In this document: one piece after another, positions 12,509 through 44,649 of the stretch
Layout: the number at the start of each line of letters is the position of its first letter
Numbering within the stretch: the stretch's first letter is position 1
DNA from: a virus
Taxonomy: Duplodnaviria > Heunggongvirae > Uroviricota > Caudoviricetes
Virus record (IMG/VR): IMGVR_UViG_3300035034_002381
Coordinates: 1 to 64,000 of that record
Strand: one strand, 5' to 3'
DNA: 64,000 nt
Translations under genes and position numbers: made by a program
Notes under the pieces: generated by a model
What the model saw: only the letters and a program-made list of their open reading frames with translations
The model's database searches: none
What the model was told of the DNA's origin: nothing

Positions 12509-12512
12509 TAAT

Positions 12513-19195: not shown

Positions 19196-19213
19196 AAAAT
19201 AATTTCATAATAA

Positions 19214-25806: not shown

Positions 25807-26081
25807 TGAAAAAGGCAAGAACATTTACAGAATTTAATGAGTCTATATCAAACGAAGAAGAACTAAATGAAGCAGTCGATGTATTTATCGCAATTGCTGA
25901 AGCTTTAGACGTAAGTTTAGATGTCGCAAAAATGATAGTAGCTTTGGCAGGAGTCACCGGAACAGTAACTTTCGCAGCAGCAATGACAAAAATCCAAGAT
26001 GTATTGGCAAAGAAAAATCCTAAATTATCTAAGAAATTAGGTGATATTACAAAAGGAGCAAATAACGCGAGAACACAATAG
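25806..26081 (+). CDS. small protein with N-terminus MKKARTFTEFNESISNEEELNE
   Basis: 91 aa; family-like N-terminus. Confidence 0.5.
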   Translation: MKKARTFTEFNESISNEEELNEAVDVFIAIAEALDVSLDVAKMIVALAGVTGTVTFAAAMTKIQDVLAKKNPKLSKKLGDITKGANNARTQ

Positions 26082-26085
26082 AAAT

Positions 26086-26562: not shown

Positions 26563-26973
26563 ATGAAAGCCTTTACTTATGTTATAGATATTGATGACAC
26601 TATCAATATTACCGATAGAGATGAAAATAATATAGGACTGTATTCTCAGTCTCGGCCGATACTTAAAGTTATCAATAAAATTCGAAGACTTAAAAAAGAA
26701 GGCCACAAAATCATACTTTTTACTGCTAGAGGTATGCGTACATTTAATAATGATGTCAAAAAAATCGAAGATTTTCATAGAGAAACACTCGTTAAATGGT
26801 TAAATGACCATGAAGTCCCTTATGACGAACTACAGTTCGGTAAACCATGGGGCCCCCATGTAATATATGTCGATGATCGTGCTGTTACTATTAACCAATT
26901 TGTTTTGGGTGGTCCCGAAAATCACAGAAGTTATACACACATTAACAAAACAGTTATAAATGATGAATTATAA
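26563..26973 (+). CDS. HAD-superfamily phosphatase
   Basis: DxDxT motif YVIDIDDTI near N-terminus; 136 aa. Confidence 0.5.
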   Translation: MKAFTYVIDIDDTINITDRDENNIGLYSQSRPILKVINKIRRLKKEGHKIILFTARGMRTFNNDVKKIEDFHRETLVKWLNDHEVPYDELQFGKPWGPHVIYVDDRAVTINQFVLGGPENHRSYTHINKTVINDEL

Positions 26974-28660
26974 AGTAATTATTCCCGCGGCAGGGAAGGC
27001 ATCAAGACTCAAGCCTTTATCTTCTTCAATGTCAAAATCAATGGTGCCAGTAAATGGTAAACCAATAATTTCATATATTCTTGATCAACTGTTTGAACTA
27101 GGAAATCCATTTCAAATAGTTATTGTTGAAAATGAGCTCGGTGATATTCAAGATTTTGTTAAAAACGCATATCCAAATTATTATGAAGAATCCCGTATTC
27201 TTTTTGCAACTCAAAAAGAAAGGTTAGGTCCTTTGCATGCTATTGAAATTGGTGCAAATAGGTTTCCGGAAAATGATAACATGCCAATTATGGTTTGGCT
27301 CGGAGATACAATCTGTTTGGAAATGGGTGAGTTGCCAGTTAATGAATCTTTATTAATTACATCGCCTGTCGCCGATTATAAAAGATGGTGTTTAGTAGAT
27401 AACGAGAATGTCTTCTATGATAAACCAGATAACAAACCAAGCACTAACCAAGCTTTAATAGGTATATATTATTTCCATGATTTTAAGGCCTTCTACGAGG
27501 CCCTAGATAAGGGAATGCAAGCTCCTATGATTAAAGATGAACATCAAATATCGGCTTTATTAGAAGCATATAAAAAACAACATATATTCAAAATCAGAAA
27601 AACTGATGAATGGTTTGATTGTGGTGAGTTACATACATTTTATGAATCTAAAGCAAGACTTCTTGGAAGATCTGCCAGGTCATTTAATAGTCTAGAAGTA
27701 AATACATTCCATAACACAATTACTAAATCTTCATTAACATTCGAAGGTAAACTGAAAATTGAGAATGAAAAAAATTGGTATTTAGGTTTACCTGAGAATA
27801 TTCAGATTCTCACACCTAGAGTATTAAAATCAAATTCAGGTACGCTAGTTATGTCGCAAGAACCTGGAACACCTCTTAATGAAATGTGGCTTTATGAGGA
27901 TTTGACTGATGATACATGGAAAAGAATAATTGATAAAACGTTACTTATACACAATAAAATTTTCTATCAATCTAGATATATTCCTAAATCTTCTAAATTA
28001 GATAGATTTGCTGCAAGAAAGGAAATGTATCTGACTAAAAATATTGACAGATTGACAGAAATTTCATTCCTGCCTTTTGCACAGAAAAATATAAAAATGA
28101 TTCGAGATTTTGTGCGGGTTACTGGTGAATTATTAATTGAAGATGAAGGTCGTTGGTCGCCACATTTTCATGGAGATTCTCACATGGGTAATATTTTATT
28201 TGAACCTTTACAGGGAAGTATGAAATTTTTGGATCCACGTGGAAAGTTTGGAAATATCGTAGGCATTGAGGGCGATATGTATTATGATATGGCTAAAATT
28301 GCGCAAGATTTTCTTTTACGCTATCCTGAAATTTTATCTGGTCATTATCATTTTAGTGGAGATAATTTTGACCAGCTTGAATTTTATAGAAATGACGAGA
28401 GATCTAAAACTATGCTAAAACATTTCAGAAAAAGAATTGGTGAATATGGTTATATTCCTAATCTTGTTTTAATGTTAGCAACTGTGCTTATCATAACTTG
28501 TATACCTTTTCATAAAGACGATCCAGAAAGACAAAAAGCATTTTGGTATATGGCAGTAAATGTTATTAAAGAAAGAGGGTGGAATATCCAACTCGAAGAT
28601 CATCTCAAAAAACAAAAATTACAATTATCAGACAAGATACATAATCTATACAACTTATAA
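26960..28660 (+). CDS. bifunctional sugar/alcohol-phosphate nucleotidyltransferase (LicC/RmlA-like N-terminus) plus choline/aminoglycoside-kinase-like domain (LicA-like C-terminus)
   Basis: N-terminus KVIIPAAGKASRLKPLS...MVPVNGKPIISYILDQL (GxGxR nucleotidyltransferase motif); C-terminus HFHGDSHMGNILFEP and IEGDMYYDMAKIAQDF (kinase-fold catalytic motifs). Confidence 0.6.
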   Translation: MMNYKVIIPAAGKASRLKPLSSSMSKSMVPVNGKPIISYILDQLFELGNPFQIVIVENELGDIQDFVKNAYPNYYEESRILFATQKERLGPLHAIEIGANRFPENDNMPIMVWLGDTICLEMGELPVNESLLITSPVADYKRWCLVDNENVFYDKPDNKPSTNQALIGIYYFHDFKAFYEALDKGMQAPMIKDEHQISALLEAYKKQHIFKIRKTDEWFDCGELHTFYESKARLLGRSARSFNSLEVNTFHNTITKSSLTFEGKLKIENEKNWYLGLPENIQILTPRVLKSNSGTLVMSQEPGTPLNEMWLYEDLTDDTWKRIIDKTLLIHNKIFYQSRYIPKSSKLDRFAARKEMYLTKNIDRLTEISFLPFAQKNIKMIRDFVRVTGELLIEDEGRWSPHFHGDSHMGNILFEPLQGSMKFLDPRGKFGNIVGIEGDMYYDMAKIAQDFLLRYPEILSGHYHFSGDNFDQLEFYRNDERSKTMLKHFRKRIGEYGYIPNLVLMLATVLIITCIPFHKDDPERQKAFWYMAVNVIKERGWNIQLEDHLKKQKLQLSDKIHNLYNL

Positions 28661-28670
28661 AAAACATACT

Positions 28671-28949
28671 ATGAGCAAAGATTTAGAAAAAGCTAGTGAG
28701 ACACTAGAAGAAACATTGACAGATATCCAAAAGGTGGCAGCTGCTAATTTTTATGATATTGTACAAATTAGTTTAGCCGATAAAGAAGGTAAAGTAGTTG
28801 GTAAAGCTTCTATGAAATATGAAGATATTTTAGCAATGACTAAGATGCATACACAAGATTCTTCACACGTTGTAGGAATGTTATTTCATGCAGTCGAATC
28901 AGAAACTCGTAACAAATTACGAGAAGAAAAAGAAAATGAAGCCAAATGA
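28671..28949 (+). CDS. hypothetical protein
   Basis: Internal ATG of listed ORF 28560..28949 chosen to avoid overlap with upstream gene. Confidence 0.4.
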   Translation: MSKDLEKASETLEETLTDIQKVAAANFYDIVQISLADKEGKVVGKASMKYEDILAMTKMHTQDSSHVVGMLFHAVESETRNKLREEKENEAK

Positions 28950-29134
28950 TTTTTAAAGTAAGAGTAGAAGAAAAGAGCATAGAAGATGTTATAGAACTTA
29001 TTGAAACAGGAGAAGGGAAAAAAGGTCTCCAATTTGATCTATATAATGAAAAACCATATTTTTCACATGTAGAAATTTTCGTTAATACTGATGATTTCTA
29101 CACATTAAAGGATTATTTAAATGAACAAACCTAA
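28946..29134 (+). CDS. small hypothetical protein
   Basis: 62 aa; ATGA overlap. Confidence 0.35.
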   Translation: MIFKVRVEEKSIEDVIELIETGEGKKGLQFDLYNEKPYFSHVEIFVNTDDFYTLKDYLNEQT

Positions 29135-31064
29135 GACTATATGTCTTGTTATGATTGTAAAAAATGAGGCAAAAAATTTACCTCGTTGTTTTTCTACGAT
29201 CAAACATATTATTGATTATTGGGTAATTGTTGATACTGGTTCAACTGATAACACACAGGAAGTTATACAGAAAGAGTTAGCCGATATTCCTGGTGTATTA
29301 ATGGAAAGACCGTGGGTCAATTTTGGTCATAATAGATCCGAATCTTTGGCTTTTGCTAAAAACAGAGCAGATTATCTTTTGCTTTGTGATGCTGATGAAC
29401 AAATTATACCTACACACAATTTTGACAAATCTGAGTTGACTCTTGATCAATATCATTTAAGATATAATGGGAGCTTAGATTATATGGTTCCTTATCTTAT
29501 TAAGTCTAATTTGGCTTGGAGATTTGTAGGAGTTACCCATGAATTTTTGACAGCAAGTGACACAAAATCTTCAGGTGAGATTAAAAGCCTTTCAATTAAA
29601 GATTGGGGAGATGGTGGAGCAAAATCTGATAAATTTGAAAGAGACATTAAATTGCTCGAACAAGGTTTGATTGATGAACCGAAGAATGTTAGGTATATGT
29701 TTTATCTAGCAAATTCTTATAAGAATACTAAGGATTTTGATAACGCAATCAAATGGTATAAAAAACGTATCGATGCAGGGGGTTGGATAGAAGAAGTTAC
29801 ATGTTCATATGAATATATGGGAGGATGTTATCAGCAGAAAAATGACCACGGGAATGCGATTAAAACATGGATAGATGGTTATGAATTTAATCCTTCTCGT
29901 GCTGAGTGTTTATATGAGGCAGGTAAATTACTTCGTGAAGAAAATAAGAATAGAATAGCTTACGAATTTTTACAAAAGGCTAAAGAAATTCCATATCCTA
30001 CTAACGATAGATTATTTATCAAAAGAGATGTTTATGAATATTTGATAGATTATGAACTGACTATTTGTGCATATTATGTTAAACCAGAATATGATATGAC
30101 CGAGACATTTAAAAGGCTAATCTTTTGGCCAAGTCATTTACAACAAAACATTATACAAAATTTTAAGTTTTGGGCTAAAGATTTGAATACACTTATAGGT
30201 CAAGAGGAAAGTATGATCTTGGCTAAAGATTTGATTAGTAATGATTTGGTTGAGGGTTTTACACCTAGTTCCCCATCAATTCTTTTTCATAAAAATCGCA
30301 AGTACATAAATGTGCGCCAAGTATCATATAAAATTGACGAAAATGGTAAGTATTTAGATCGTGCAAGTGGAGGTCATTGTAAACATGTGAATACAATTAA
30401 CACAATGTATTGGACTGATGGACCCTCATATGACACGGAAAATTTTAAACCCAATGATATTTCTACTAAACATGTGAATGGTATTGAAGATCTAAAACTA
30501 TATACACACAATGGAGTAATCAAATACACTGGGACAAAATGGTTGGATTATAACAAAATTTCTATAGTTATTGGTGAGTATACTAAAGAAGGTCTAGATA
30601 ATTATGCTATTCTAGAGTCTCCAGAAGGAAGGAATGTTGAAAAAAATTGGGTACCGTTTGGATTAGATAATGAAGAACTTTTTGTATATGATTGGAATCC
30701 AATAAAAATTGGAAGAATCAAAAATAATAAACTAGTAATCAAAAATTTAAAAACTAGTTTTCCTAACTTGCGTGGATCAGCTCCTGGTAAACTTATTGGA
30801 GATCATATCTATTTTTTATGTCATTTTGTAGAATATTCTACACCAAGAATTTACTATCATATCTTCATTAAAATGCATAAAGATAATTGGGAAAAAATCG
30901 AGATTTCTAAACCGTTTGTTTTTGAAAAACCACAAATAGAATATTCAGTAGGATTTGATTATAATATTAAGACTGATGATATACATATTGCATATAGTGT
31001 AAATGATTCGAATGCAAGAATCAAATCTTATTCACAAACACAATTTCAAAAACTTTTTACTTAA
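29121..31064 (+). CDS. family 2 glycosyltransferase with TPR-like middle region and extra C-terminal domain
   Basis: TICLVMIVKNEAKNLPRCFSTIKHIIDYWVIVDTGSTDNT is typical of GT2 N-terminal DXD fold. Confidence 0.6.
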   Translation: MNKPKTICLVMIVKNEAKNLPRCFSTIKHIIDYWVIVDTGSTDNTQEVIQKELADIPGVLMERPWVNFGHNRSESLAFAKNRADYLLLCDADEQIIPTHNFDKSELTLDQYHLRYNGSLDYMVPYLIKSNLAWRFVGVTHEFLTASDTKSSGEIKSLSIKDWGDGGAKSDKFERDIKLLEQGLIDEPKNVRYMFYLANSYKNTKDFDNAIKWYKKRIDAGGWIEEVTCSYEYMGGCYQQKNDHGNAIKTWIDGYEFNPSRAECLYEAGKLLREENKNRIAYEFLQKAKEIPYPTNDRLFIKRDVYEYLIDYELTICAYYVKPEYDMTETFKRLIFWPSHLQQNIIQNFKFWAKDLNTLIGQEESMILAKDLISNDLVEGFTPSSPSILFHKNRKYINVRQVSYKIDENGKYLDRASGGHCKHVNTINTMYWTDGPSYDTENFKPNDISTKHVNGIEDLKLYTHNGVIKYTGTKWLDYNKISIVIGEYTKEGLDNYAILESPEGRNVEKNWVPFGLDNEELFVYDWNPIKIGRIKNNKLVIKNLKTSFPNLRGSAPGKLIGDHIYFLCHFVEYSTPRIYYHIFIKMHKDNWEKIEISKPFVFEKPQIEYSVGFDYNIKTDDIHIAYSVNDSNARIKSYSQTQFQKLFT

Positions 31065-32362
31065 TGTACATTATAAAAAACAATAAACTTGAATCTACTG
31101 ATAATATCGATTTATTTTTTAATGAGATAAATGTTGGACAACATATTGCTAAATATGGATATTTCGAAAGTGACCTTATTAATTGGTTAAAGCTTACATA
31201 TAAAAATAATGATAAAATCTTTTTAGATTTAGGAGCGCACATAGGTTCATATTCAATAGAATTAGCAGAAAATTTTCATTCAGTTCATTCATTTGAACCT
31301 AATCCAACAGTCTATAATCATTTATGTGCTAATGTTGCATTAAAGAGATTATCAAATAGGGTATTTCCACACAGAGTTGCATTATCGGATAATAAATCTA
31401 AACAGCCATATTATGAGAGATCCAAAGATGGTGGAGGTAATGGAATTGAAGTTGTAAGAGAGAACGATAAGCACTCATTCTTTGTAGAATCTAAATGTTT
31501 AGATGATTATTCTTTCGATAAAGAAATCGGTTTGATTAAAATTGATATCGAAGGTCATGAGTATAAAGCTATTTTGGGTGCATATGAAACTTTGAAAAAC
31601 TCATATTTCCCACCTATAATTTTCGAATCTTGGGCGCAAAATACACACCCAGAATATTCACAAGAAATACTTTTAGAAATTCGTGATAAAACATTTGATG
31701 TATTAAAGGATTATGGATACACTGTTAAATCCATAAGTGGATATAATGAAATGTTTATTGCTGTTCAAGAGCGTGAAAAATCTCAAGAAGATATTATTGT
31801 TGAAGGTCTTTTGACAGATAAGTTAGACGTATGGCTTAACTCACCTGGAGGGACTCGAAGCAATTATATAGCCGATGTTCTAGAAAAAAGTAATTTAAGA
31901 GTGAGAAACGAATCCTGGTATAAGTATGGTTGTCATTGGACTTCTCCTTTATTTGAAAGGGAATTTAAAACTACAAGATTGTTTTGCTACACTAGCGATA
32001 TCGGACTCGCATTGACAAGTCAGTTAAATGCCAATACTATTGATAAACTGAATTTTGCAGATTTTTATAATGAACCATGGGATTTATATCGATGGATACA
32101 AAATATTAAAAAACAAGTGATTAACTGGTCGGATCCTGGCGTATTCTTTTTAAATACCGACTATTTAAATGATAAAGATATTCAGTCTGAATTTAAAACT
32201 CTTACTGGAGATAGTTTAGACATATCAGATTTCAGACTTGACCGTAAATCTAAAAAATTACATCCTGCATTAATACAATACATGGATGAGATTAATGAGA
32301 TTAATGAGTTATTAGCAAAATTACCTAATGCCGGTTTTGGCGGAGAAGTTGATGAAGGTTAA
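31064..32362 (+). CDS. FkbM-family SAM-dependent methyltransferase, two-domain
   Basis: FLDLGAHIGSYSIELAE (FkbM glycine-rich motif) in N-terminal domain. Confidence 0.5.
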   Translation: MYIIKNNKLESTDNIDLFFNEINVGQHIAKYGYFESDLINWLKLTYKNNDKIFLDLGAHIGSYSIELAENFHSVHSFEPNPTVYNHLCANVALKRLSNRVFPHRVALSDNKSKQPYYERSKDGGGNGIEVVRENDKHSFFVESKCLDDYSFDKEIGLIKIDIEGHEYKAILGAYETLKNSYFPPIIFESWAQNTHPEYSQEILLEIRDKTFDVLKDYGYTVKSISGYNEMFIAVQEREKSQEDIIVEGLLTDKLDVWLNSPGGTRSNYIADVLEKSNLRVRNESWYKYGCHWTSPLFEREFKTTRLFCYTSDIGLALTSQLNANTIDKLNFADFYNEPWDLYRWIQNIKKQVINWSDPGVFFLNTDYLNDKDIQSEFKTLTGDSLDISDFRLDRKSKKLHPALIQYMDEINEINELLAKLPNAGFGGEVDEG

Positions 32363-32816
32363 AAATATGAAATTAGAAATTGATTTTAGTTTGAGCGATT
32401 TAAAAAATAATTGGAAACCAAAAATTAAGATTTGGTTATCATGGGAGTACTAAAGGTGATAAGATAGAATTTGAAATGTATTTTGATGAATATCACAGTG
32501 AATGGACTTCTTTTAAAGATAAAGCGTTTAAAGGATTTGTTCTTAAAAAAATAGATAGAATATTAGACGAAAATTGTTAAAAGTCAAATATTTTGATTAT
32601 ATTTATCCTAAATTAATAACAATGGAATATAAATATAATGAGCTGGAAAAACTTCTTATTCTTATGGGTAAAAAATATCCAAATGACCATGATCTTGGCA
32701 ATCAAGCGCGTAAACTTATTCAAAAGATCAAAGAAAAATAAATTCAATCCAATAGCTGATTGGAGGCCGTTAACTGAGGAAGAATTAAAGTCAAATCTTT
32801 TTAAACCACCCTTTTA

Positions 32817-33455
32817 ATGAACATATTTGTTCTTGACGAAAATGTCAAAAAATGTGCCGAATATCATTGTGATAAACATGTTGTCAAAATGATTACTGAG
32901 CATAATCAAATTTTGGGTTCGATTTCTTATTTACGTAGAGGTATTTCTAAAAAATCGGAAATAACTGATGAATTTATTCAACAACATTTCCAAAATTTTC
33001 CTAGAAAAAAATTAGCAATTGATATGGATTCATTACCCATTGCTGATCATTCGCCACTTATCAAAAAATTATGGAATTTTGTAAAACCCGCAGAATTGTC
33101 TTGGCCGTACGGTATTGGTTATAAAAATCATCCATGTACACAATGGGCTAATGCGTCTAAAGAAAATTATGATTGGCTATGCTCACTCAATCTTGAATTG
33201 TGTAAAGAATATACTAAACGATATAATCGTCGACATGCTGGTGAGGATATTACTCAATGGTATATTGAAAACGCACCATATCTACCGAATTCTGGCATGA
33301 CTCCATTTGTTTTAGCTATGCCTGATGATTGTAAATCTGATGATCCAGTTGAATCTTATCGAATTTACTACATTTATCATAAATATAAATTTGCCAAATG
33401 GAAAACAAAAGTTCCAAATTGGTATATAAACGTTATAAAACATCAAGAAATATGA
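32817..33455 (+). CDS. hypothetical protein
   Basis: 212 aa. Confidence 0.5.
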   Translation: MNIFVLDENVKKCAEYHCDKHVVKMITEHNQILGSISYLRRGISKKSEITDEFIQQHFQNFPRKKLAIDMDSLPIADHSPLIKKLWNFVKPAELSWPYGIGYKNHPCTQWANASKENYDWLCSLNLELCKEYTKRYNRRHAGEDITQWYIENAPYLPNSGMTPFVLAMPDDCKSDDPVESYRIYYIYHKYKFAKWKTKVPNWYINVIKHQEI

Positions 33456-34009
33456 CAATCAAACACAGAATAACTGATTCTGAAAATACCCATGTTATGC
33501 TCGACATAGAAACTTTGGGTACTGGTGCTAATGCAATCATTTTACAGATTGCAATGGTCAAATTTGGTCTTAACGATCAAAATGGTGAAACAATGAAAAC
33601 TATAGTTAATGTTTTTCCTTGTATCAAAGAACAACATGATGAAGGTAGAACAATGACTTTCGATACAGTTAACTGGTGGCTTGGTCCAGATCATGTGAGC
33701 ATATTAGCAAATCTGCGGAAACAGGAAACATCCAATTTGGTAGATGTTAGATCTCAAATAGCTAAGCACATGGAAGAATTTAGGAAATCGGGAGTTCATC
33801 TGTGGGCAAGGTCACCCAAATTTGACATCAAGATTTTAGAAGATTTTTTAGGAACAGATGTGCCAGAACATTCCCGAAGGCACCAAAGAGATGTTAGAGA
33901 ATATGAATTTATTTCGGGCGATCGCCCAGGTGCATCCCATGATGCAGAAGATGATTGTATTCAACAAATTATATTAGTCACTAATGTTATTCAAAGACTT
34001 TTTATATGA
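33452..34009 (+). CDS. DEDDh 3'-5' exonuclease (DnaQ/oligoribonuclease-like)
   Basis: Exo I motif VMLDIETLG; C-terminal HDAEDD (H-x4-D); start at internal ATG with 4-nt overlap. Confidence 0.55.
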   Translation: MTIKHRITDSENTHVMLDIETLGTGANAIILQIAMVKFGLNDQNGETMKTIVNVFPCIKEQHDEGRTMTFDTVNWWLGPDHVSILANLRKQETSNLVDVRSQIAKHMEEFRKSGVHLWARSPKFDIKILEDFLGTDVPEHSRRHQRDVREYEFISGDRPGASHDAEDDCIQQIILVTNVIQRLFI

Positions 34010-34122
34010 TAACCTCGATAGTAGAAATTATTAAAGAATCTCTAATTGGTAAATCAGTTATAGTTGCCGAGTATTACCCGGATAACAATGAGGGAAATTA
34101 CAAATTCTAAAATAAAGTTAAC

Positions 34123-35022
34123 ATGATATCAGAAGAAAAATTTCCCGATGGACAAATTAATTTTAAAGCAAATACAGAGGACATCAAAAGTCTTTTAACA
34201 CCACCATACATTTTATCAAATGATAATGCGATAAATTTTACAATTGATCTAAGTAACTGGGATAAATTTCAAACTTTGTTGGCAGCCAATGCAAAATTTA
34301 GACAAACGCACAAACAAATTAATTTACATATAGGTTATCTTTTTGGTTCAAGAAGTGACCGTAAATTTGAACATGACGGAATTAACTATTTTCGTGATGT
34401 AATTGCTAAAACAATCAATGATCAAAATTTCAACAAAGTTACTGTATTTGATCCACACTCACTTGCAGTAGAAAATGCAATTAATAATTGTGAGAGTATT
34501 CATCCGTTCCCACAAATCAATCACCATTTTTTAAATATGGTTGGAAATTTAGATTTATCTGAATATGAAATTGTTATAGCGTCTCCAGACCTTGGGGCAT
34601 ACAAAAAAGTCTTTGGAATTTTTGCTAAATTTTCCGAAAAATATCCAAACATACATTTTAATTTTATTTCCGCAAATAAAATTCGTAGTCTGTCTGGTGA
34701 TATTTCTATGGTTTTAAATCCACCATATAAAGAATTTGACAAATCAAAAAAACGAATTCTATATTTAATTGATGATATTTGTGATGGCGGGAGGACCTTT
34801 ATAGAATTTGCTAAACTTCTTAACGAAGATTTTGAGAAAAAGTATCTATATGTATCACATGGAATATTTTCTAAAGGTCTTGATCCATTATTAGAACATT
34901 TCGATAAAATTTTTACTACAAACAGTATTTCGAATACTTATATCAAATATCTAACAAACGATAATACCATTCTAAATTCTAACATTCTTTTTACCACATT
35001 TATTTCGCAACGCAATGAATAA
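34123..35022 (+). CDS. ribose-phosphate pyrophosphokinase (Prs) homolog; could be an Adps-type enzyme
   Basis: 299 aa; PRPP-binding loop ILYLIDDICDGGRTF; VTVFDPHS resembles Prs DLHA region. Confidence 0.55.
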   Translation: MISEEKFPDGQINFKANTEDIKSLLTPPYILSNDNAINFTIDLSNWDKFQTLLAANAKFRQTHKQINLHIGYLFGSRSDRKFEHDGINYFRDVIAKTINDQNFNKVTVFDPHSLAVENAINNCESIHPFPQINHHFLNMVGNLDLSEYEIVIASPDLGAYKKVFGIFAKFSEKYPNIHFNFISANKIRSLSGDISMVLNPPYKEFDKSKKRILYLIDDICDGGRTFIEFAKLLNEDFEKKYLYVSHGIFSKGLDPLLEHFDKIFTTNSISNTYIKYLTNDNTILNSNILFTTFISQRNE

Positions 35023-35989: not shown

Positions 35990-35995
35990 AAAGAT

Positions 35996-37714
35996 ATGAG
36001 AAAAATGAACGCTTTCTTAGCAACCGATGGTTATAAAACAGGCCATCACATAATGTATCCTGAAGGAACTATTGAGGTATATGATAATTTAACACCCCGC
36101 AGTTTTAAATACGCAATCAACAATGTCGAGTATGTTATTGCTGTGGGTCAAAAAATGGCAGTCACAGAAATCAACGATATGTTTAACGAAACATTTTTTA
36201 GACATGAAGATGTTGAAAGACTTGCCTTTCATTTATTTAGACAAGGATTACCTGAACAAAAAGCTAAAGAAACCGCAAGAAATAAAATTAAAGCCGAAGT
36301 ATGTAGTGAAATCAAAAAGGAGTTTTCGTTATATCTAGATATGAAATATGATGTTTCGCATATTGAAAGACTTTGGGATTTAGGATATCTTCCTGTAAAA
36401 ATAAAAGCTTTACCAGAAGGTGTAAAGGTCCCAATAAAGGTTCCTGTACTTACAATTGTAAATACTTTGCCAGATTTTTTCTGGTTACCTAATTTCTTGG
36501 AGACTATTATTTCTAATTTGTTATGGAAACCTATGACATCTGCAACTATTGCGTACGAGTTCAAGAAAACTTTGACTAAATGGGCAATGAAAACTGATAG
36601 CAAAAATGTTTCTATTGTAGAATTTCAGGCACATGATTTTTCAATGCGAGGAATGGATTCTATTTATGCTGCTGCTTCATCAGGTTTAGGTCATGCATCA
36701 TCATTCCTTGGAAGTGATACAATACCAGTAATTCATGCAGCAAGATATTATTATGGTGATCAAGGTCCTATTATACATTCTGTAAATGCTACAGAACACA
36801 GTGTCATGTGTGCTGGAGAAAAAGATAGTGAAATTGAAACATTCAGACGATTATTGCGTCTTTTCCCGACAGGAATCTTATCAGTAGTTTCTGATACTTG
36901 GGATTTATGGAAAGTGATAGTAAAATATCTTCCTGAATTAAAGGACGAAATTCTAAAAAGAGCAGGAAAACTGGTTATTAGACCTGACTCTGGAAATCCT
37001 GTTGATATTATTTGTGGTTTTGATCATAATAGATTTGATACACACGAAGAAGCAGAAAAATATTATAGAACTTATGGAATAAAAGATCCAAAATACTATG
37101 TAAAAAACGAATTCTTTACTGTAATTTCACATTCAGGCAACAATTTTAAATATGCAGATTTAGAAGAGACTCCTGCTGATAAAGGAGTCGTGCAATTATT
37201 ATGGGAAATCTTTGGAGGGCAAATAAATGAAGATGGATTCAAAGTTTTAAATGAACACATTGGCGCAATTTATGGTGATAGTATTAATTTCGAAAGAGCA
37301 AATCAGATTTGTGAGAGACTAGCCAGCAAAGGATTTGCGACTACAAACGTTGTACTTGGAATAGGATCCTTCACATATCAGTATAACACTCGTGATAACC
37401 ATGGATTTGCCGTTAAAGCTACTCATATAACTATTCAACATCCTGATGGAAAAATGGAAGAAAGAGACATATTCAAAGACCCACTAACATCGGTAGGTAC
37501 AAATAAAACTAGTGCTAAAGGATTTATTCAAGTACTTAAAGAAAATGGAGAGTATATTATGAGAGATCAGGTTAGTAGAGAACAAGAAGAAAATTCTTTA
37601 CTTACAATGATTTATTTAGATGGTAAAGTTCTTTCCGAAGACACACTCAAAAGTATTCGTAGAAATGTGAATAACGAATTGGCTGTTGAATTAGGATTAT
37701 ATGAAGTAGCATAA
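35996..37714 (+). CDS. nicotinamide phosphoribosyltransferase (NAMPT/NadV) homolog; could be Namat-type
   Basis: N-terminus NAFLATDGYKTGHH; VIRPDSGNPVD and IYGDSIN match NAMPT conserved segments. Confidence 0.65.
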   Translation: MRKMNAFLATDGYKTGHHIMYPEGTIEVYDNLTPRSFKYAINNVEYVIAVGQKMAVTEINDMFNETFFRHEDVERLAFHLFRQGLPEQKAKETARNKIKAEVCSEIKKEFSLYLDMKYDVSHIERLWDLGYLPVKIKALPEGVKVPIKVPVLTIVNTLPDFFWLPNFLETIISNLLWKPMTSATIAYEFKKTLTKWAMKTDSKNVSIVEFQAHDFSMRGMDSIYAAASSGLGHASSFLGSDTIPVIHAARYYYGDQGPIIHSVNATEHSVMCAGEKDSEIETFRRLLRLFPTGILSVVSDTWDLWKVIVKYLPELKDEILKRAGKLVIRPDSGNPVDIICGFDHNRFDTHEEAEKYYRTYGIKDPKYYVKNEFFTVISHSGNNFKYADLEETPADKGVVQLLWEIFGGQINEDGFKVLNEHIGAIYGDSINFERANQICERLASKGFATTNVVLGIGSFTYQYNTRDNHGFAVKATHITIQHPDGKMEERDIFKDPLTSVGTNKTSAKGFIQVLKENGEYIMRDQVSREQEENSLLTMIYLDGKVLSEDTLKSIRRNVNNELAVELGLYEVA

Positions 37715-37790
37715 TGGAACAAGTTACATAATTTTCTAAAATAAACTGATTCTATTAAAACTTTTCAAGTCTAGATTAATATAAAATATA

Positions 37791-39107
37791 ATGAAAAGAT
37801 CTGGTATTAAAGTAGCGGTATTTCCCATGGGTTCAATTATCCGATTTAGGAAAGATGGAATCAAAAGATCGTTTGGTCGTTTAGAATATTATAATTTGAT
37901 TTGGGCGTTGGCCAGAAATCCAAGTATTTCGGAAATTTGGCTTTTACAAGTTTCTGATTGGGAACAATTGACTGATGATGAAAAAATTGATTTTGATCCT
38001 AGAAAAGTTATTCGTAACATTTATGCGGAATTTAAAGTAGACAAACCTAATAGTAAAAAACAAGAATCTTACGCTGATCTTTGGAACAAAATTTCTCATC
38101 TTAAGCAACCTGATTTTGCAATTGTATTTTCTACACAAGGTCTTACTAGAATTTCTATACCAAATATTATACCTAAAGTAAAAAATCCTGAAGAAAAAGC
38201 TAAATGTTTAGAAATGACAATACGCTATTGTTCTTCACAAATGTATTATCTAAACAATTCAGAAATTCCATATTTTTTGGTAGTTAATGATGGCAGATTT
38301 TTGTATACTAATACACATACAAAATATCTGGATATGTTTAATTTACCCAAAGAAATCATGGGATTTTACAAAAATGATGATTATATACTTCATCATTATG
38401 ATAAAATGCCGGATGATGGTGGCAAAATGACTACTGATGTTGTTAAGTTATCATACAGTAAAATGATTTGGCTTAATAATATCAGTGAAAAAATCATAGA
38501 CCCTGCCAACATAGAGAAAACTGAAAAGTTTTCTATTGTAGCTATGCAGGCAGCTTATGGTAAAGATAAACATGATCCTAGATATTCTATTCTAAAGGAG
38601 TGGTTTTTAGACGTAGATGGAAATGAAGATGTTTCGATTTATGGTAAATGGGGAGAATCTTATGTTAAAGATTATCAACATTTTAAAGGCTTAAAGCCAC
38701 ATACTGAAATTGATGAAATTTTCAAGAAAACTAGGTACACATTATTGATTCCAACAGAACCTTTATGGGTAACTACGAAAATATGTGAGATGTTGAAATT
38801 GGGTGTTGTCCCGTTTTTGCATCCTAGTTATGATGAAAAAAATCTATCATTTGGAGAGGATTCATTTTTTAGAGTAAAAAATCCGGAAGATTTAAAAAAG
38901 AAGATTTCATTTTTAGAAAAAAATCCAGATAAAAGAATCAAGCTCATACAAAAGGCTCAAGAAAAATATATGGAAGGTGTCACAAACGGAACTTGTGTCG
39001 TCGACGCAATTAATCCATATCTTCAACGGGCTAATATTGATGTAGAATTGCAACATGGATTTAGTGATGAACTAATTCGTAAGCGCAAAGTTAAAAAATT
39101 ATTTTAA
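37791..39107 (+). CDS. hypothetical protein (possible GT-B-like glycosyltransferase C-terminal half)
   Basis: 438 aa; C-terminus ...EMLKLGVVPFLHP faintly GT-B like. Confidence 0.45.
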   Translation: MKRSGIKVAVFPMGSIIRFRKDGIKRSFGRLEYYNLIWALARNPSISEIWLLQVSDWEQLTDDEKIDFDPRKVIRNIYAEFKVDKPNSKKQESYADLWNKISHLKQPDFAIVFSTQGLTRISIPNIIPKVKNPEEKAKCLEMTIRYCSSQMYYLNNSEIPYFLVVNDGRFLYTNTHTKYLDMFNLPKEIMGFYKNDDYILHHYDKMPDDGGKMTTDVVKLSYSKMIWLNNISEKIIDPANIEKTEKFSIVAMQAAYGKDKHDPRYSILKEWFLDVDGNEDVSIYGKWGESYVKDYQHFKGLKPHTEIDEIFKKTRYTLLIPTEPLWVTTKICEMLKLGVVPFLHPSYDEKNLSFGEDSFFRVKNPEDLKKKISFLEKNPDKRIKLIQKAQEKYMEGVTNGTCVVDAINPYLQRANIDVELQHGFSDELIRKRKVKKLF

Positions 39108-39110
39108 ATT

Positions 39111-40319
39111 ATGAAGAATAAATTTTCTAAGGATGGACATTGGAGATTCGGTACTATAGTTCCATTAATCGGGGGAATGACCATATCCAACCAACAAGCA
39201 ACCGGAGATAATCCGGACTTTTTAATATCTTATCCAGCGTTTGCAGGCAATGATTCTCATTGTGTTAATCATTTTAAAGATACCCCATATTATGTAGTCG
39301 ACCCAGAAACTAATGAATTACCTGAAGACGATACTTTTCAAAATGTAGATTTTGTGTCTGCAGTGTGCCCATGTGCAGGACTTTCTATGTTAAATACTTC
39401 TAAGAAAAGAGGATCTGATGCAGAAATGAATAATTGGATGTATAAATCTGCAGAATTAGTTTTAGAACAAATTAAACCCAAAGTTTTTTGGGGGGAGAAT
39501 GCACCAGGTCTATATACAAAATCTGGTGAAGGTGTAGTCAAAAAATTGAGAGAAATTGCTGAAAAGAATGGTTATGTACTTTCATTAGTCAAAACTAATA
39601 CCTTTTTACATGGTATACCACAACATAGAACTAGAACTTTTTACTTTTTTTGGCAAGGTAAACATGCGCCAATACTGAATTATACCGAGCGGGATGCACC
39701 AACTCTTAAAGAATATCTAGATCAAATTCCTGAAAATGCTTCTATGCAAGATGAAAAATTCGGCTTAGAAAGTATGAATAGTCTTTGGTTTAAATTCTTA
39801 AAAGATCAAAACATAAAAATTTCAGATGTACAAAAAAGTACGTGTAAATCAATTATGGATTATTGTGTAGCCGAAAAATTGATGCCGAAAATGGTTGATT
39901 GGGGTGAAGAAAATGGATATGATAAAATGGTCAGGACTGCTAAGCATATTCTACATAAACAATCTATGGGTAAAGGTTGGTGGGACGCTACACCATTAGT
40001 ACCAACAGATACTATTAATGCGCTGATTAGTAAGAATGCTGGAATTGTCCACCCGAACGGAGAAAGACCAATTAATACCCGAGAAGCTTTATGGTTAATG
40101 GGATTACCACATGATTTTACTATGGTCGATTATGACAATAGAAAAAATAGCAATCACATTTGCCAAAACGTACCGGTAACCACTGCAAAAGACTGGACAT
40201 TCGAAGTGATGAAATTTATCAATAAAGATATTGAAAAAATTGCAACGCCGTTTCTAAAACAAAACAATATCAAACAAAGAATAGATTTACAAGAAAATAA
40301 ATCCAAAGCACTTTTTTAA
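39111..40319 (+). CDS. DNA (cytosine-5)-methyltransferase-like protein
   Basis: VPLIGGM (motif I-like), VCPCAGLS (PC catalytic motif IV), GENAPGL (ENV motif VI). Confidence 0.55.
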   Translation: MKNKFSKDGHWRFGTIVPLIGGMTISNQQATGDNPDFLISYPAFAGNDSHCVNHFKDTPYYVVDPETNELPEDDTFQNVDFVSAVCPCAGLSMLNTSKKRGSDAEMNNWMYKSAELVLEQIKPKVFWGENAPGLYTKSGEGVVKKLREIAEKNGYVLSLVKTNTFLHGIPQHRTRTFYFFWQGKHAPILNYTERDAPTLKEYLDQIPENASMQDEKFGLESMNSLWFKFLKDQNIKISDVQKSTCKSIMDYCVAEKLMPKMVDWGEENGYDKMVRTAKHILHKQSMGKGWWDATPLVPTDTINALISKNAGIVHPNGERPINTREALWLMGLPHDFTMVDYDNRKNSNHICQNVPVTTAKDWTFEVMKFINKDIEKIATPFLKQNNIKQRIDLQENKSKALF

Positions 40320-40321
40320 AT

Positions 40322-41761
40322 ATGAAACCTTTATTTGTAATAGAAGACGAAATACAAAATAAGTCTAATATATTCGAACTAATTAATCCACAAAAATTAG
40401 ATCCGAATAAAAAGACTATATTAATAATCACATACAAAAATTTTGCTGGTGATTTTGACTATATTTATGGATTTAATCACAAGATTATTGAATTATTAAA
40501 AGATCAATATAATATTGTATTTGCTGGAAAGGAAATTAAAAAGAATGTCATCGATATAGATAATTTCTATTTAATTGATATGAAAGGTTATACGAGTTTA
40601 AATCAGAATAGATTTAAGCGCAAAAAAGAAGATCCTAACAGTAACCAAATTAACAGAAATATTTTATGGGAAGAATTTGAATCTGCGTTCGGTGATTTAG
40701 AAATTGATTTAATTTTTTATGCGACACCAGAGTATGCGATTTTACCTCATGGTAAATCTTATCATAAAGATTTCAAAGAAATACAAAACGAAATTCATGA
40801 TTATGTAGGCGCAGATACTAAAAAGATTCAGCGTATTAACGAAATTATGTACGATATCTATGAAAATTATGATACCCATGCATCTATTTTAATGTTTTCT
40901 GCCTGGCATAAAAATGTCATGATGAACTTGCCGGTTTTTCTAAAAGAAAGAAATTCGTTTAAAGTCATTGCATTTTCTATTGATCCTGCAAATACTTATC
41001 GATATTTGGAACACCATGGAATAGAATGTACCAATTTTTATTTTGAAGAAGATAAACGTGGTACTCGCAATTTCGAAAAATTTCCAATAGCACATCTTCA
41101 ACATTTAATTTTTGAAAACAACGAAAATCCTACAGAAAAATATAGTTTAGAAAAAACTACAGATTTTTTCTTTATGGGAACGATTATTCAAGAAAAGGGA
41201 AGTAGAATGCAGATGTGGTATGAATTTTTATCAGATTTAAAATTAGACGATAAATCTAATTTTTGGATCCCAATTAAACATAATGGAATTTACCGAACTA
41301 AAAAACAAGAAACTAGTGGTCATACCAAAAAGGGTTTACAGATTATTGATGAAAAATTCACAGACATTAAAAATGCTATCATAAATCATCCCAATTTTTC
41401 TGGACATTTATTACCATCAGAAGTCAAAAAACATATTGTAGCTTATAAATATTCATTAGTATTGCGATGTGTTTCTATTTATGATAGTCTAAATTTTAGA
41501 CCTATTTATTATGTTTATTTAAACATTCTTCCATTTTTAGATCATATGTATGATCCAGATTATTTACAGATTCCTAAGAAATTTCAAGACAAATTAGCAG
41601 TATCTAATTCACGAGATATCGAGGATAGAATCAAATATTATAATCAAAATCCAAAAGAAAGAATTCAGTTATTAAAAGAAATGAGAGAGTTTTTTGAAAT
41701 AGACGAGTTTTTAGAAGATTGGAAAAACATAACACTAAAACATATAGATCATGCTAAATAA
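40322..41761 (+). CDS. hypothetical protein
   Basis: 479 aa. Confidence 0.5.
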   Translation: MKPLFVIEDEIQNKSNIFELINPQKLDPNKKTILIITYKNFAGDFDYIYGFNHKIIELLKDQYNIVFAGKEIKKNVIDIDNFYLIDMKGYTSLNQNRFKRKKEDPNSNQINRNILWEEFESAFGDLEIDLIFYATPEYAILPHGKSYHKDFKEIQNEIHDYVGADTKKIQRINEIMYDIYENYDTHASILMFSAWHKNVMMNLPVFLKERNSFKVIAFSIDPANTYRYLEHHGIECTNFYFEEDKRGTRNFEKFPIAHLQHLIFENNENPTEKYSLEKTTDFFFMGTIIQEKGSRMQMWYEFLSDLKLDDKSNFWIPIKHNGIYRTKKQETSGHTKKGLQIIDEKFTDIKNAIINHPNFSGHLLPSEVKKHIVAYKYSLVLRCVSIYDSLNFRPIYYVYLNILPFLDHMYDPDYLQIPKKFQDKLAVSNSRDIEDRIKYYNQNPKERIQLLKEMREFFEIDEFLEDWKNITLKHIDHAK

Positions 41762-42398
41762 GATATTTAAAAGTTTGAGTAATTCTGAAAATGAAGCATT
41801 ATGTGTACAAAGAACTAATCTTTTATTCGAAGCATTAGATATTATAGAAAAACATAATGGGAAAGCTTGGTTAGATTGTGGTACTTTGTTAGGTGCGTAT
41901 AGAGATGGTGAATATATTCCATGGGACGTCGATGTAGATTTAGGAATTAATATCGAGGATGTTACTGAGGAAATGCTAAATGATTTCAGAGATAAATATA
42001 ATATACGACACGATAATGGAAACTTAGATCAATACAAATTTTGCTCATTTTATAAGAGAGATGAAAATGGTGATAATTACAAATTTAGAAGATGTAATTT
42101 ATGGATTGATTTACATATGTACTATCCAAATTATGATGGTACAAGAACTATGACAATTACTACAGGAAAAATTAGAGCACCTAAAAAAATCTTTCCAGCA
42201 CCTGCTGAATGTATCGAGAATTTAGAACAAATTGAATGGCAAGGTAGAAAAGTAAATATTCCTAGTAAAACTGTAAAATATTTAGAACAATGGTATGGAT
42301 ATGATTGGGACGTACCTAACGATAAATGGAAAATGTCTCCGAGTTGGTACGATAATCCAACAAATGACAAAATTATTCAAGGTAAAACCCTCTTTTAA
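41751..42398 (+). CDS. LicD-family phosphotransferase (CDP-alcohol phospho-group transferase, fukutin-like)
   Basis: LDCGTLLGAYRDGEYIPWDVDVDLGI matches LicD signature. Confidence 0.6.
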   Translation: MLNKIFKSLSNSENEALCVQRTNLLFEALDIIEKHNGKAWLDCGTLLGAYRDGEYIPWDVDVDLGINIEDVTEEMLNDFRDKYNIRHDNGNLDQYKFCSFYKRDENGDNYKFRRCNLWIDLHMYYPNYDGTRTMTITTGKIRAPKKIFPAPAECIENLEQIEWQGRKVNIPSKTVKYLEQWYGYDWDVPNDKWKMSPSWYDNPTNDKIIQGKTLF

Positions 42399-42416
42399 AC
42401 AAAATAAACAAAACAA

Positions 42417-43178
42417 ATGCATATATTAAATGAATATTTTGACAAGATTTATATTACCAACCTCGACTCGGCCAAAGATAGATATGAAAGATTATCTAAA
42501 GAACTGGATTCATTTGGCGTTGTTTATGAAAGATTCAAAGCATTGACTCCAGATGATGCAAGAAAGGTATTTGCTGAAAAAGGCCTAAAGATTCCTAAAA
42601 GTAATAGTGGAGCTCTTGGTTGCGCAACTTCACATTATATATGCTGTCAACAGGCTGCGAAAAATGGACTTAAAAGAATTTTGATTCTTGAAGATGATGC
42701 AAGAATAACCGATATAGATTTTAATCAAGAGACTCAAAATTTAGTTGAACAAATAAGAAAAACCGACTGGTTTTATCTAAAGCTTGGTTATAATATCACT
42801 AACCAGATGTTAGACGAAAATTTTGAGTTTCATAGAGTTTCAGAAAATTTGTTTAATCTTTCAAAAAGTTCTATGACCACCGCTATAGCTTTCAATATCG
42901 AAAAAATCGTAGAGGATGAGAATGCTTCCACAGTTTTTATTTCTGATCACGCATTAGAAAATAGTAAATTGAATATTCATATTGACCATAGATTGTTTAT
43001 GATGTGTAACGAATTCGGAATTCTACAATGCCATTATTATCCAGCAATATTTACTCAGACTGATGGGTATTCATACATAGGAAAAGAAGAAAGGAAATTC
43101 TCTAATATTGATAAAAGAACAAACAGAATATTCAAAGAGCATATACAATCTTCTAGCTCAACAAAAAAATTATTTTAA
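42417..43178 (+). CDS. family 25 glycosyltransferase-like (Lic2B/LgtB type)
   Basis: KIYITNLDSAKDRYERL..., GALGCATSHY, ILILEDDARI. Confidence 0.5.
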   Translation: MHILNEYFDKIYITNLDSAKDRYERLSKELDSFGVVYERFKALTPDDARKVFAEKGLKIPKSNSGALGCATSHYICCQQAAKNGLKRILILEDDARITDIDFNQETQNLVEQIRKTDWFYLKLGYNITNQMLDENFEFHRVSENLFNLSKSSMTTAIAFNIEKIVEDENASTVFISDHALENSKLNIHIDHRLFMMCNEFGILQCHYYPAIFTQTDGYSYIGKEERKFSNIDKRTNRIFKEHIQSSSSTKKLF

Positions 43179-43196
43179 ACAAAGAAAATAGAAAAT

Positions 43197-43976
43197 ATGG
43201 AATTTTTAAATATACTACAATCGGAATTACAATCGGGATTTATTTACATACCTAATAGAGGCAATGCTGGGGATGTTGTCATTCAACAATCTACTATTAA
43301 ATTTTTTGAAAAAAATAATCTAAACTTCGAATTAGGAAAAAACACTACAACTTATGTTGGGGAAAATCTAGTTTATGGTGGGGGTGGAAATTTGATTGGA
43401 AAATACCAACCGGCTAAAAAATTCATAAAATTAAATGCGGAAAAAAATCATATAATGATATTACCGCATACAATTAAGAACAGCGAAAAGTCTTTAAATA
43501 TGCTGAATAAGGATTCTATTGTTTTTTGCAGAGAAAGAATATCTCATGAATATGTTAGTAAATTTATTGAAAAATGTTATTTACATAAAGATATGGCTTT
43601 TCATCTAGATTTAGAATCTTATAAAAAGGAATCTAAATATGAAGTAGGAAATATATTTAGAATGGATGTCGAATCTTCTAATAACGTTAAAAAAATTCCA
43701 TCTAATAATGTGGATATATCCAGTGTTTTTAATCGTAGAAATCAGCATACAAATTTAGAAGTAGCTCAAGCTGTATTTGATGATTTTGTTAATTATATAG
43801 CAGATTTCGAAATTGTAAACACAGATAGATTACATATTGCAATTATTGCTGCAATATTGGGAAAAAATGTTAATCTTTATCCTAACTCATATTATAAAAA
43901 TAAAGCCGTATATGACTATACATTATCGTTAGAATATCCCAACGTCAATTTTATCGATGAAGTAAAATATAGATGA
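43197..43976 (+). CDS. polysaccharide pyruvyl-transferase-like protein
   Basis: IPNRGNAGDVVI resembles the GxxNxGDxxI pyruvyl-transferase motif. Confidence 0.4.
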   Translation: MEFLNILQSELQSGFIYIPNRGNAGDVVIQQSTIKFFEKNNLNFELGKNTTTYVGENLVYGGGGNLIGKYQPAKKFIKLNAEKNHIMILPHTIKNSEKSLNMLNKDSIVFCRERISHEYVSKFIEKCYLHKDMAFHLDLESYKKESKYEVGNIFRMDVESSNNVKKIPSNNVDISSVFNRRNQHTNLEVAQAVFDDFVNYIADFEIVNTDRLHIAIIAAILGKNVNLYPNSYYKNKAVYDYTLSLEYPNVNFIDEVKYR

Positions 43977-44030
43977 TGCATTTTAAAACTTTTTATTAAT
44001 GTATTAATATAAACTTTAATATACTTTTTT

Positions 44031-44603: not shown

Positions 44604-44649
44604 TCAAAGATTCCAAGAACTTATTGAGCAGATTGAGATATCTGCAGAA

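Follow-up and report, generated by a model that had tools for sequence, protein, structure and literature searches.

What is made by a phage which encodes a nucleotidyltransferase-kinase fusion, a LicD-family protein and a pyruvyl-transferase-like protein? The question is raised by a 64,000-nt stretch of tailed-phage DNA (positions 1 to 64,000 of IMG/VR record IMGVR_UViG_3300035034_002381, hereafter the window), where such genes lie between 26563 and 43976. An earlier note had read them as a Lic-type island for phospho-alcohol and glycan decoration and offered three possible targets, namely virion glycans, host surface receptors or sugars attached to hypermodified DNA bases; it is the last that the evidence supports. 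We consider it reasonably probable that the island is mainly a gene set for DNA cytosine hypermodification, which would make 5-hydroxymethylcytosine (5hmC) before replication and glycosylate it, along with accessory enzymes that may tailor the glycan on the DNA. The core of this reading is well supported, while the part played by LicD and the pyruvyl transferase in tailoring is inferred from gene placement.

Genes are designated by their start positions (Table 1). Relatives were collected as homologues of 37791, 40322 and LicD, their contigs were fetched and IMG/VR was scanned with the family alignment of 40322; window proteins were then mapped to the loci (L numbers), of which 20, several of them short, were left after near-duplicate removal. 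Single-sequence scans of IMG/VR with LicD or the fusion returned no relatives, so alignment-based scans were needed.

The predicted core pathway and its conservation

Two genes past the end of the island as first drawn (44031-45468) are functionally linked to it, and together with two GT-B glycosyltransferase genes (37791, GT-B1, and 40322, GT-B2) and a C5-cytosine DNA methyltransferase (C5-MT) gene they had been missed by the earlier reading. One of them encodes a thymidylate synthase (TS) homologue whose best match in the PDB is the deoxycytidine monophosphate (dCMP) hydroxymethylase of T4 (1b5d, 1.4e-14). Twelve residues line the C5 of the substrate, and D169N is diagnostic of a 5-hydroxycytosine (5hoC) synthase (PMC13326640). 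The residues of the TS homologue (W80, Y94, D143, C146, T147, M165, R166, S167, N168, D169, G173 and D177) equal those of T4 gp42 at 12/12, while E. coli ThyA differs from it by L143, H147, Q165, C168 and N177; the numbering follows E. coli ThyA, and the motif comparison with T4 gp42 is independent of it. The catalytic Cys146 is present and Asn177 is replaced by Asp, as is required for dCMP specificity, and because of this cytosine-specific Asp177 and the complete T4 gp42 active site the TS homologue is not a dTMP synthase. Its possible role as a 5hoC synthase was also considered and rejected, since the D169N signature carried by the Mosigvirus 5-hydroxy-dCMP synthase is absent (Asp is found at position 169) and the protein sorts with the hydroxymethylase branch.

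Pfam gives little for the two GT-B proteins, with a weak Glyco_trans_1_2 match as the only support for 37791 and none for 40322. Their AlphaFold models are confident (predicted local distance difference test, pLDDT, 85 and 92, respectively), and the best structural match of both is the T4 DNA beta-glucosyltransferase (BGT); the best viral model match of 40322 is likewise annotated as a DNA beta-glucosyltransferase. Both are thus regarded as candidate 5hmC DNA glycosyltransferases. The GT-B2 family is rare, with 130 of 1.84 billion protein representatives found at E ≤ 1e-3.

The sugar for such transferases would be supplied by the HAD phosphatase (26563) and the fusion (26960). The 566-aa fusion aligns end to end with the "UDP-arabinose biosynthesis" enzyme of Mosigvirus Bas47 (24% identity, 1e-17) and over its full length with ORF047 of Enterococcus phage 9183 (28% identity, 1e-45), and the HAD protein is 41% identical to the HAD of phage 9183 (6e-27) and 29% to the Bas47 phosphatase. 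In the arabinosyl-5-hydroxycytosine (Afh) clusters, AfhE is a sugar-5-phosphate 1-kinase and UDP-sugar pyrophosphorylase, while the phosphatase AfhF strips the distal phosphate of the 1,5-bisphosphate, according to the phage HY126 work as cited in PMC13326640. Full-length homology together with conserved catalytic motifs places the window pair with this AfhE/AfhF type of sugar supply. The nucleotidyltransferase (NTase) domain of the fusion has RmlA/GlmU/GalU-type sugar-1-phosphate enzymes as its top NCBIfam matches. In the C-terminal ~330 aa, the HGDxxxxN and DPRG motifs are invariant; searched alone, the kinase domain had zero Pfam or PDB sequence matches, a six-sequence family profile of it matched APH(2'')-Id, OspG and ribulosamine kinase at 2e-4 to 1e-2, and the L016 orthologue of the fusion has precomputed APH and Fructosamin_kin matches. 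HAD orthologues lie directly 5' of the fusion in L014, L016, L027, L028, L031 and L035.

A phmmer search with the Bas47 arabinose-5-phosphate isomerase was blank in the window and in 29 related loci, and no SIS Pfam match was found in the window; as this gene is absent, a host sugar omega-phosphate is the presumed substrate. An RB69 gp50-like enzyme and the RB69 glycosyltransferase GT1 were searched for in the window and its relatives with no result. In L014 (ENA ERZ19537466 scaffold_63) a gene for a 409-aa protein resembling the RuBisCO large subunit (3872-5101) is found 1.5 kb 5' of the HAD-fusion pair, adjoining two FkbM genes and a stand-alone NTP_transferase; this protein may act on pentose-1,5-bisphosphate intermediates.

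To hypothesize, the TS homologue would convert dCMP to 5-hydroxymethyl-dCMP, which the TMP-kinase-like enzyme (44031) would phosphorylate so that 5hmC is incorporated at replication, both steps being proposed from homology. Following the AfhE/AfhF logic, the fusion kinase domain would phosphorylate a host sugar omega-phosphate at C1, the HAD enzyme would remove the distal phosphate, and the N-terminal domain of the fusion would make the nucleoside diphosphate (NDP)-sugar, from which the two T4-BGT-like enzymes would move the sugar onto 5hmC in DNA. The likely purpose is to keep restriction, CRISPR and glycosylase defences from acting on the DNA of the phage.

Seven core genes (HAD, fusion, GT-B1, GT-B2, C5-MT, kinase and TS) travel together as a module. 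Among the 20 non-redundant loci, GT-B2 was found in 18, GT-B1 in 17, C5-MT in 16, TS in 13, HAD and fusion in 12 each and the kinase in 11, and core genes are contiguous in L014, L016, L027, L028, L031 and L035. Their order varies: in L016 it is C5-MT, GT-B1, HAD, fusion, GT-B2, kinase and TS, and in L014 and L031 it is HAD, fusion, GT-B2, GT-B1, GT25, C5-MT, methyltransferases, kinase, TS and GT2. The kinase gene lies directly 5' of the TS gene in every relative which shows both; its L016 orthologue has a precomputed Thymidylate_kin match, and the L014 orthologue matches the TMP-kinase-like gene of Bas47 (5e-8). In L017 the module is flanked by the DNA polymerase and UvsX genes of a T4-like replication region, a position which the arabinose cluster has in Mosigvirus.

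The C5-MT aligns to M.HaeIII and 3g7u, and its PLIGG, PC, ENAP, QxRxR and QNV motifs are conserved over 18 family members. Its role could lie in incomplete replacement of cytosine, in host DNA as a target, or in chemistry on 5hmC, and an enzyme of this fold may thus join in 5hmC chemistry rather than simple methylation. The window has a NUDIX hydrolase gene (48873-49403), 3.4 kb 3' of the TS gene, a possible dCTP-pyrophosphatase analogue for the pathway; a 242-aa protein weakly similar to its product is encoded immediately after the C5-MT in L014 (13385-14113).

Accessory genes and competing explanations

Between GT-B2 and the kinase-TS pair, the window holds LicD, GT25 and the pyruvyl transferase. 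In the relatives the corresponding slot, from C5-MT to the kinase-TS pair, is one in which LicD, GT25, methyltransferases and small cytidylyltransferases interchange: LicD, a SAM methyltransferase, a small CTP_transf_like protein and a 160-aa protein in L010, L019 and L020; GT25, LicD, a racemase-family (Asp_Glu_race) gene and CTP_transf_like in JGI 3300072015; and TylF-type methyltransferases in L014. GT25 occurs in the same module of L014, L021, L031, L035 and JGI 3300072015. LicD itself matches the cholinephosphotransferase Mf1 (4e-20) and FKRP (6kaj, 1e-8), and because of its FKRP-type DxD motif (PWDVDVDLG) a CDP-alcohol donor is the family expectation. Searched by tblastn against 50,697 phage records, LicD gave one marginal match.

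Placement would favour an action of LicD, GT25 and the pyruvyl transferase on the DNA-bound glycan. From 37791 to 45468 there is a run of eight genes with spacings of -20 to +54 nt; a scan of 26-46 kb for sigma-70 promoters and terminators was indistinguishable from shuffles, and therefore the operon boundaries are drawn from gene spacing. All close LicD homologues with usable context (4/4) are inside the module, and a distant LicD is found elsewhere in the same module, directly 5' of HAD and the fusion in L035 and L036. Going by this placement, GT25 would add a further sugar to the glycan, LicD a phospho-alcohol from a CDP-alcohol and the pyruvyl transferase a pyruvate ketal from phosphoenolpyruvate. 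We tentatively propose, as a possibility that falls somewhat short of probable, that LicD and the pyruvyl transferase decorate glycosyl-5hmC with a pyruvate ketal and/or, in the manner of teichoic acids, a phospho-alcohol (for instance phosphocholine, glycerol-phosphate or ribitol-phosphate). The GT2 protein with TPR repeats (GT2-TPR) and FkbM may belong to the accessory layer too: a 44%-identical GT2-TPR orthologue lies 3 kb 3' of the TS gene in L014 and L031, FkbM genes are also found 5' of the module in L014, and in the window FkbM overlaps the GT2 stop by 1 nt. The C-terminal ~320 aa of GT2-TPR and ~200 aa of FkbM gave no Pfam or PDB match.

Several facts weigh against cytosine hypermodification with a tailored glycan. 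The modified cytosine is a prediction from genes, and no sugar isomerase that would point to its sugar is encoded. An intact C5-MT is kept in the module of most relatives, and this enzyme would have no substrate if cytosine were fully replaced; the 64-kb window shows the NUDIX gene but no recognisable dCTPase or other way to keep dC out. The relatives may share synteny through descent, so the evidence from placement is weaker than apparent, and most LicD contexts were retrieved via LicD itself and form a biased sample. The window has no cytidylyltransferase gene dedicated to the LicD donor, 0/20 relatives have the pyruvyl transferase, unrelated genes stand between the operon and the GT2-TPR and FkbM genes, and in the literature searched no paper ties LicD, CDP-glycerol or pyruvylation to DNA modification.

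The absence of the pyruvyl transferase from the relatives and the physical separation of GT2 and FkbM would also suit a division of labour. The core would then modify DNA, while the acceptors of LicD, GT25, the pyruvyl transferase, GT2-TPR and FkbM would lie outside DNA, among the capsid or tail proteins of the virion or in the precursor, still cytoplasmic, of a glycan of the host envelope, and their position would mean no more than that the module tolerates insertions. GT2-TPR is similar to peptide glycosyltransferases of the SunS type (2e-10); by their Pfam definitions, pyruvyl transferases, LicD and GT25 are classically enzymes of polysaccharide, lipopolysaccharide and teichoic acid, and ~65% of phage contigs with glycosyltransferases have no neighbouring base-modification enzyme (Pyle et al.). 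Against such a division, LicD overlaps GT-B2 by 11 nt within the unbroken eight-gene run that ends with kinase and TS, and its homologues keep to the module as described above. At third codon positions the accessory genes have the same GC content as the genes around them, which gives no sign of recent insertion. A hydrophobicity scan gave no candidate membrane-spanning segment in the island enzymes (the one flagged stretch is a family-conserved part of the fusion kinase domain), no lipid-carrier enzyme was found among the island genes, and no flippase, polymerase or transporter families are among the island HMM (hidden Markov model) matches; this argues against a surface-polysaccharide conversion system. 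Taken together, we regard the divided function as unlikely, although it is the strongest of the alternatives.

Much less probable is the pathway which the earlier note had in mind, that is, a LicC/LicA-type fusion which makes CDP-choline or a similar donor for the transfer of its phospho-alcohol to a glycan by LicD. The window has no nucleotidyltransferase other than the fusion, whose NTase domain has S. pneumoniae LicC as the second-best solved match (1jyk, 7e-6) and whose kinase fold is that of the APH/choline-kinase superfamily; LicD does stand directly 5' of HAD and the fusion in L035 and L036, and one further locus, L056, joins LicD, an NTase-APH fusion and HAD. The full-length homologues of the fusion are AfhE-type sugar-phosphate kinases and NDP-sugar pyrophosphorylases, however, its best NCBIfam matches point the same way, and its constant HAD partner has no role in the Lic pathway. 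LicD occurs in 4/20 relatives and the fusion in 12/20, with both together in one (L035); the fusion keeps company with T4-BGT-like glycosyltransferases and a hydroxymethylase-type TS, usually with LicD absent. In 4/5 LicD-bearing arrangements there is a small CTP_transf_like gene of their own and no fusion on their short (5-10 kb) contigs; the L010-type protein matches heptose-1-phosphate adenylyltransferase (7e-23) and TagD (5e-19) and is ambiguous between them. Neither a Choline_kinase Pfam match nor a LicB-like transporter was found in the island. The folds of the fusion are compatible with LicA and LicC, but its assignment as such a pair serving LicD is unsupported, with a small chance of a link left by the arrangement in L035 and L036.

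L056 (Ga0115011_10000272, 2546-20032) is a phosphonate-tailoring locus which has three families in common with the window island. It encodes two GT4 proteins (one matching "GT4-conflict"), a GT2, an epimerase, a B12-radical-SAM enzyme and a PEP-mutase::cytidylyltransferase fusion in addition to the three families named above, and neither TS nor C5-MT was seen within 20 kb.

The least probable alternative, and a very improbable one, is a post-replicative route, in which the C5-MT writes 5-methylcytosine at specific motifs, an unrecognised oxidase converts it to 5hmC, the glycosyltransferases act at no other sites and TS serves nucleotide supply alone; a catalytically intact C5-MT is conserved in the module (here between two glycosyltransferases), GT25 weakly matches a TET-associated glycosyltransferase family (8e-4) and clusters of a methyltransferase, a 5mYOX oxygenase and glycosyltransferases (MT-5mYOX-GT) are established in phages, but no TET/JBP or other 2-oxoglutarate-dependent dioxygenase was found among + strand open reading frames (ORFs) of at least 100 aa in the window, the TS homologue has the hydroxymethylase active site rather than that of a dTMP synthase, and GT-B enzymes go mainly with pre-replicative pathways of the TS type (Pyle et al., bioRxiv 10.1101/2023.12.21.572611).

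Gene neighbourhood and the phage

Table 1. Genes of the predicted cytosine-modification module and its accessory layer in the window.
Feature	Coordinates	Strand	Evidence and remarks
HAD-superfamily sugar-phosphate phosphatase, AfhF-like	26563..26973	+	TIGR01689 3e-28 (EcbF/BcbF capsule phosphatase), phrog_1238 5e-22; 14-nt overlap with 26960
Sugar-1-phosphate nucleotidylyltransferase (N-terminal) and APH/ChoK-fold kinase (C-terminal), AfhE-like	26960..28660	+	PF00483 6e-17; full-length homologues
GT2 glycosyltransferase with TPR repeats	29121..31064	+	PF00535 4e-11, SunS-family 2e-10, phrog_13126 2e-27; accessory
FkbM-family SAM methyltransferase	31064..32362	+	PF05050 1e-15, TIGR01444 2e-23; accessory, possible sugar O-methyltransferase
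GT-B glycosyltransferase 1, T4 beta-glucosyltransferase-like	37791..39107	+	candidate DNA 5hmC glycosyltransferase
C5-cytosine DNA methyltransferase	39111..40319	+	PF00145 8e-24; all catalytic motifs
GT-B glycosyltransferase 2, T4 beta-glucosyltransferase-like, distant paralogue of 37791	40322..41761	+	no Pfam match
LicD-family (CDP-alcohol dependent) phospho-alcohol transferase	41751..42398	+	PF04991 1e-16; 11-nt overlap with GT-B2; tailoring candidate
GT25-family GT-A glycosyltransferase	42417..43178	+	PF01755 2e-17, weak PF20691 TAGT 8e-4; accessory
Polysaccharide pyruvyl-transferase family protein	43197..43976	+	PF04230 (PS_pyruv_trans) 4e-13; accessory
P-loop TMP-kinase-like nucleotide kinase, presumed 5hm-dCMP kinase	44031..44603	+	weak PF02223 match at P-loop, 8e-3
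TS-superfamily enzyme, dCMP-hydroxymethylase type	44536..45468	+	PF00303 6e-18; gene callers' start 44584

The seven genes named in the earlier note are each a real + strand ORF with the start given there, and the HMM annotation which it had proposed confirmed all seven domain calls (Table 1). For the HAD phosphatase there is additionally a HAD-IIIA match (1e-5) and a DxDxT motif, the NTP_transferase match of 26960 covers residues 5-233, and the kinase-fold domain of the same protein, identified by its motifs and by the profile matches to APH proteins, is the weakest of the calls.

The span from 26563 to 43976 does not hold as one island. The HAD-fusion pair is split off from the rest of the module by three blocks, namely GT2-TPR with FkbM, a denV-like glycosylase with an exonuclease, and a PRS-like gene with a P-loop kinase and a NAMPT-type gene, and the last two blocks (32817-37714) are unrelated insertions. 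The former of these (32817-34009) encodes a denV-like pyrimidine-dimer DNA glycosylase (PF03013 2e-10) followed by an Rv2179c-like 3'-5' exonuclease. At 34123-37714, the PRS-like gene (TIGR01251 2e-14, below cutoff) and the NAMPT-type phosphoribosyltransferase gene (NF006629 505 bits, above cutoff) enclose a P-loop kinase gene (Zeta_toxin/AAA_33, with an NT5C-like C-terminus), an arrangement which looks like the NARP1 counter-defence pair for NAD+ reconstitution (Adps and Namat) plus an extra gene. Homologues of the PRS-like protein are present in 1,139 phage records. Directly 5' of the HAD gene (26041-26505) a SET-domain protein is encoded (PF00856 5e-11), a putative lysine methyltransferase and an unusual find for a phage.

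Phage homologues of the pyruvyl transferase (~31% identity) are found in Rhizobium Kleczkowskaviridae alone. In Rhizobium phage RHph_Y65 (L018, 2485-9864) the homologue stands among genes for gyrase A/B, a nucleotide-sugar epimerase and ParB-like and DprA-like proteins, which hints at another DNA-associated sugar pathway in this family.

Three features mark the replicon as that of a tailed phage: a major capsid protein of the gp23 type (19214-21007), a T4-type prohead protease and 21 tRNAs. The capsid protein is 40-43% identical to those of Lak megaphages and of the uncultured 462-kb phage LR756500, and a baseplate spike OB domain is also encoded in the window. A giant eukaryotic virus was considered and rejected on the basis of the capsid protein, protease and spike domain. 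All long ORFs in the window are on the + strand, and the GC content is 32%. The tRNA genes form arrays at 229-10979, with those for Met, Tyr, Ile, Val, Thr, Arg and Ser duplicated and three for Leu; no suppressor tRNA is among the 21, unlike in recoded Lak phages, despite the related capsid protein. Distortion of the ORFs by Lak-like stop-codon recoding was likewise rejected, because translation table 11 keeps them intact and the gaps consist of tRNA arrays. By megablast, 26-46 kb had zero matches among the 50,697 phage records; an identical protein is encoded on contig k141_21517 of ENA ERZ27315366, and near-identical contigs are present in other ENA, Logan and JGI samples.

Comparison with known systems and significance

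It has been shown by database mining that GT-B genes are associated with TS homologues, methyltransferases and APH phosphotransferases (Pyle et al., bioRxiv 10.1101/2023.12.21.572611), and therefore the general class to which the window module belongs is already known. Within this class, the core appears to be a hybrid of T4-type 5hmC synthesis and BGT-like transferases with sugar activation of the RB69/DLP3 type.

The Afh clusters of RB69, DLP3, HY126 and Bas46/47 (PMC13326640) share with the window a TS-superfamily enzyme with an adjoining TMP-kinase-like gene, GT-B DNA glycosyltransferases, a HAD phosphatase and a full-length homologous bifunctional nucleotidyltransferase/kinase, but the window TS is without D169N and the window is without an arabinose-5-phosphate isomerase. 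The T4 5hmC system has in common with it the hydroxymethylase active site, the pre-replicative logic and, for the two GT-B proteins, T4 BGT as the closest solved fold. T4, however, uses host UDP-glucose and is without sugar-activation genes, a C5-MT and a LicD/GT25/pyruvyl-transferase layer, while the window kinase is TMP-kinase-like rather than gp1-like, and a gp56-type dCTPase was not seen in the window.

The MT-5mYOX-GT clusters of Pyle et al. resemble the module in having a C5-MT beside glycosyltransferases, and multi-sugar 5hmC glycans are described for them; unlike these clusters, the window has a TS homologue, and no 5mYOX/TET was found. Contig 53 of the same study combines a kinase, a phosphatase, a nucleotidyltransferase and a T4-BGT-like GT-B and yields heptosyl-5hmC, for which the HAD-APH enzyme, the cytidylyltransferase and the GT-B were all needed in experiments (Pyle et al., bioRxiv 10.1101/2023.12.21.572611). 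The difference lies in the fusion, HAD-APH with a separate NTase there and NTase-kinase with a separate HAD here, and LicD and pyruvyl transferase are unmentioned in that study. With the Lic1 pathway and LicD/FKRP proteins, the window shares a LicD-family protein with the FKRP-type DxD motif, and 26960 has the folds of the LicC and LicA superfamilies. Unlike Lic1, it has no LicB transporter, no match to the choline-kinase family and no co-variation of fusion and LicD, and the setting is a DNA-modification operon rather than a surface-glycan locus.

A further arrangement that we compared is the TS-dUTPase-HAD-NTase/kinase-GT row of Enterococcus phage 9183 (Denvervirus), which has four homologous genes in the same order (identities: TS 31%, HAD 41%, fusion 28%, GT-B 25%) and whose TS has the same RSND...D active site. 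Phage 9183 differs in being an 86-kb siphophage of a Gram-positive host without C5-MT, LicD, GT25 and pyruvyl transferase. Its genome (L002, 7908-12860) encodes a TMP kinase, the TS homologue, a dUTPase, HAD, the NTase/kinase fusion and a GT-B homologue of 37791, and the record labels the TS gene as an ordinary thymidylate synthase despite the T4 gp42-like active site. From these genes, the DNA of this cultured phage would be predicted to contain glycosylated 5hmC.

What is new is the fixed seven-gene architecture with a C5-MT, its occurrence in a huge phage related to Lak phages, and a slot for tailoring which holds LicD and a pyruvyl transferase. The combination of T4-type synthesis, RB69-type activation and a C5 methyltransferase is left unexplained by current models. 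Sugar-decorated cytosines are a main means by which phages escape restriction, CRISPR and DNA-glycosylase defences, and each new DNA chemistry has supplied enzymes and substrates for epigenetic tools. If the slot enzymes act on DNA, glycans bearing phospho-alcohol, pyruvate or methyl groups would be expected on it, and if LicD and the pyruvyl transferase are among those acting on the DNA glycan, this would be a class of DNA modification so far undescribed.

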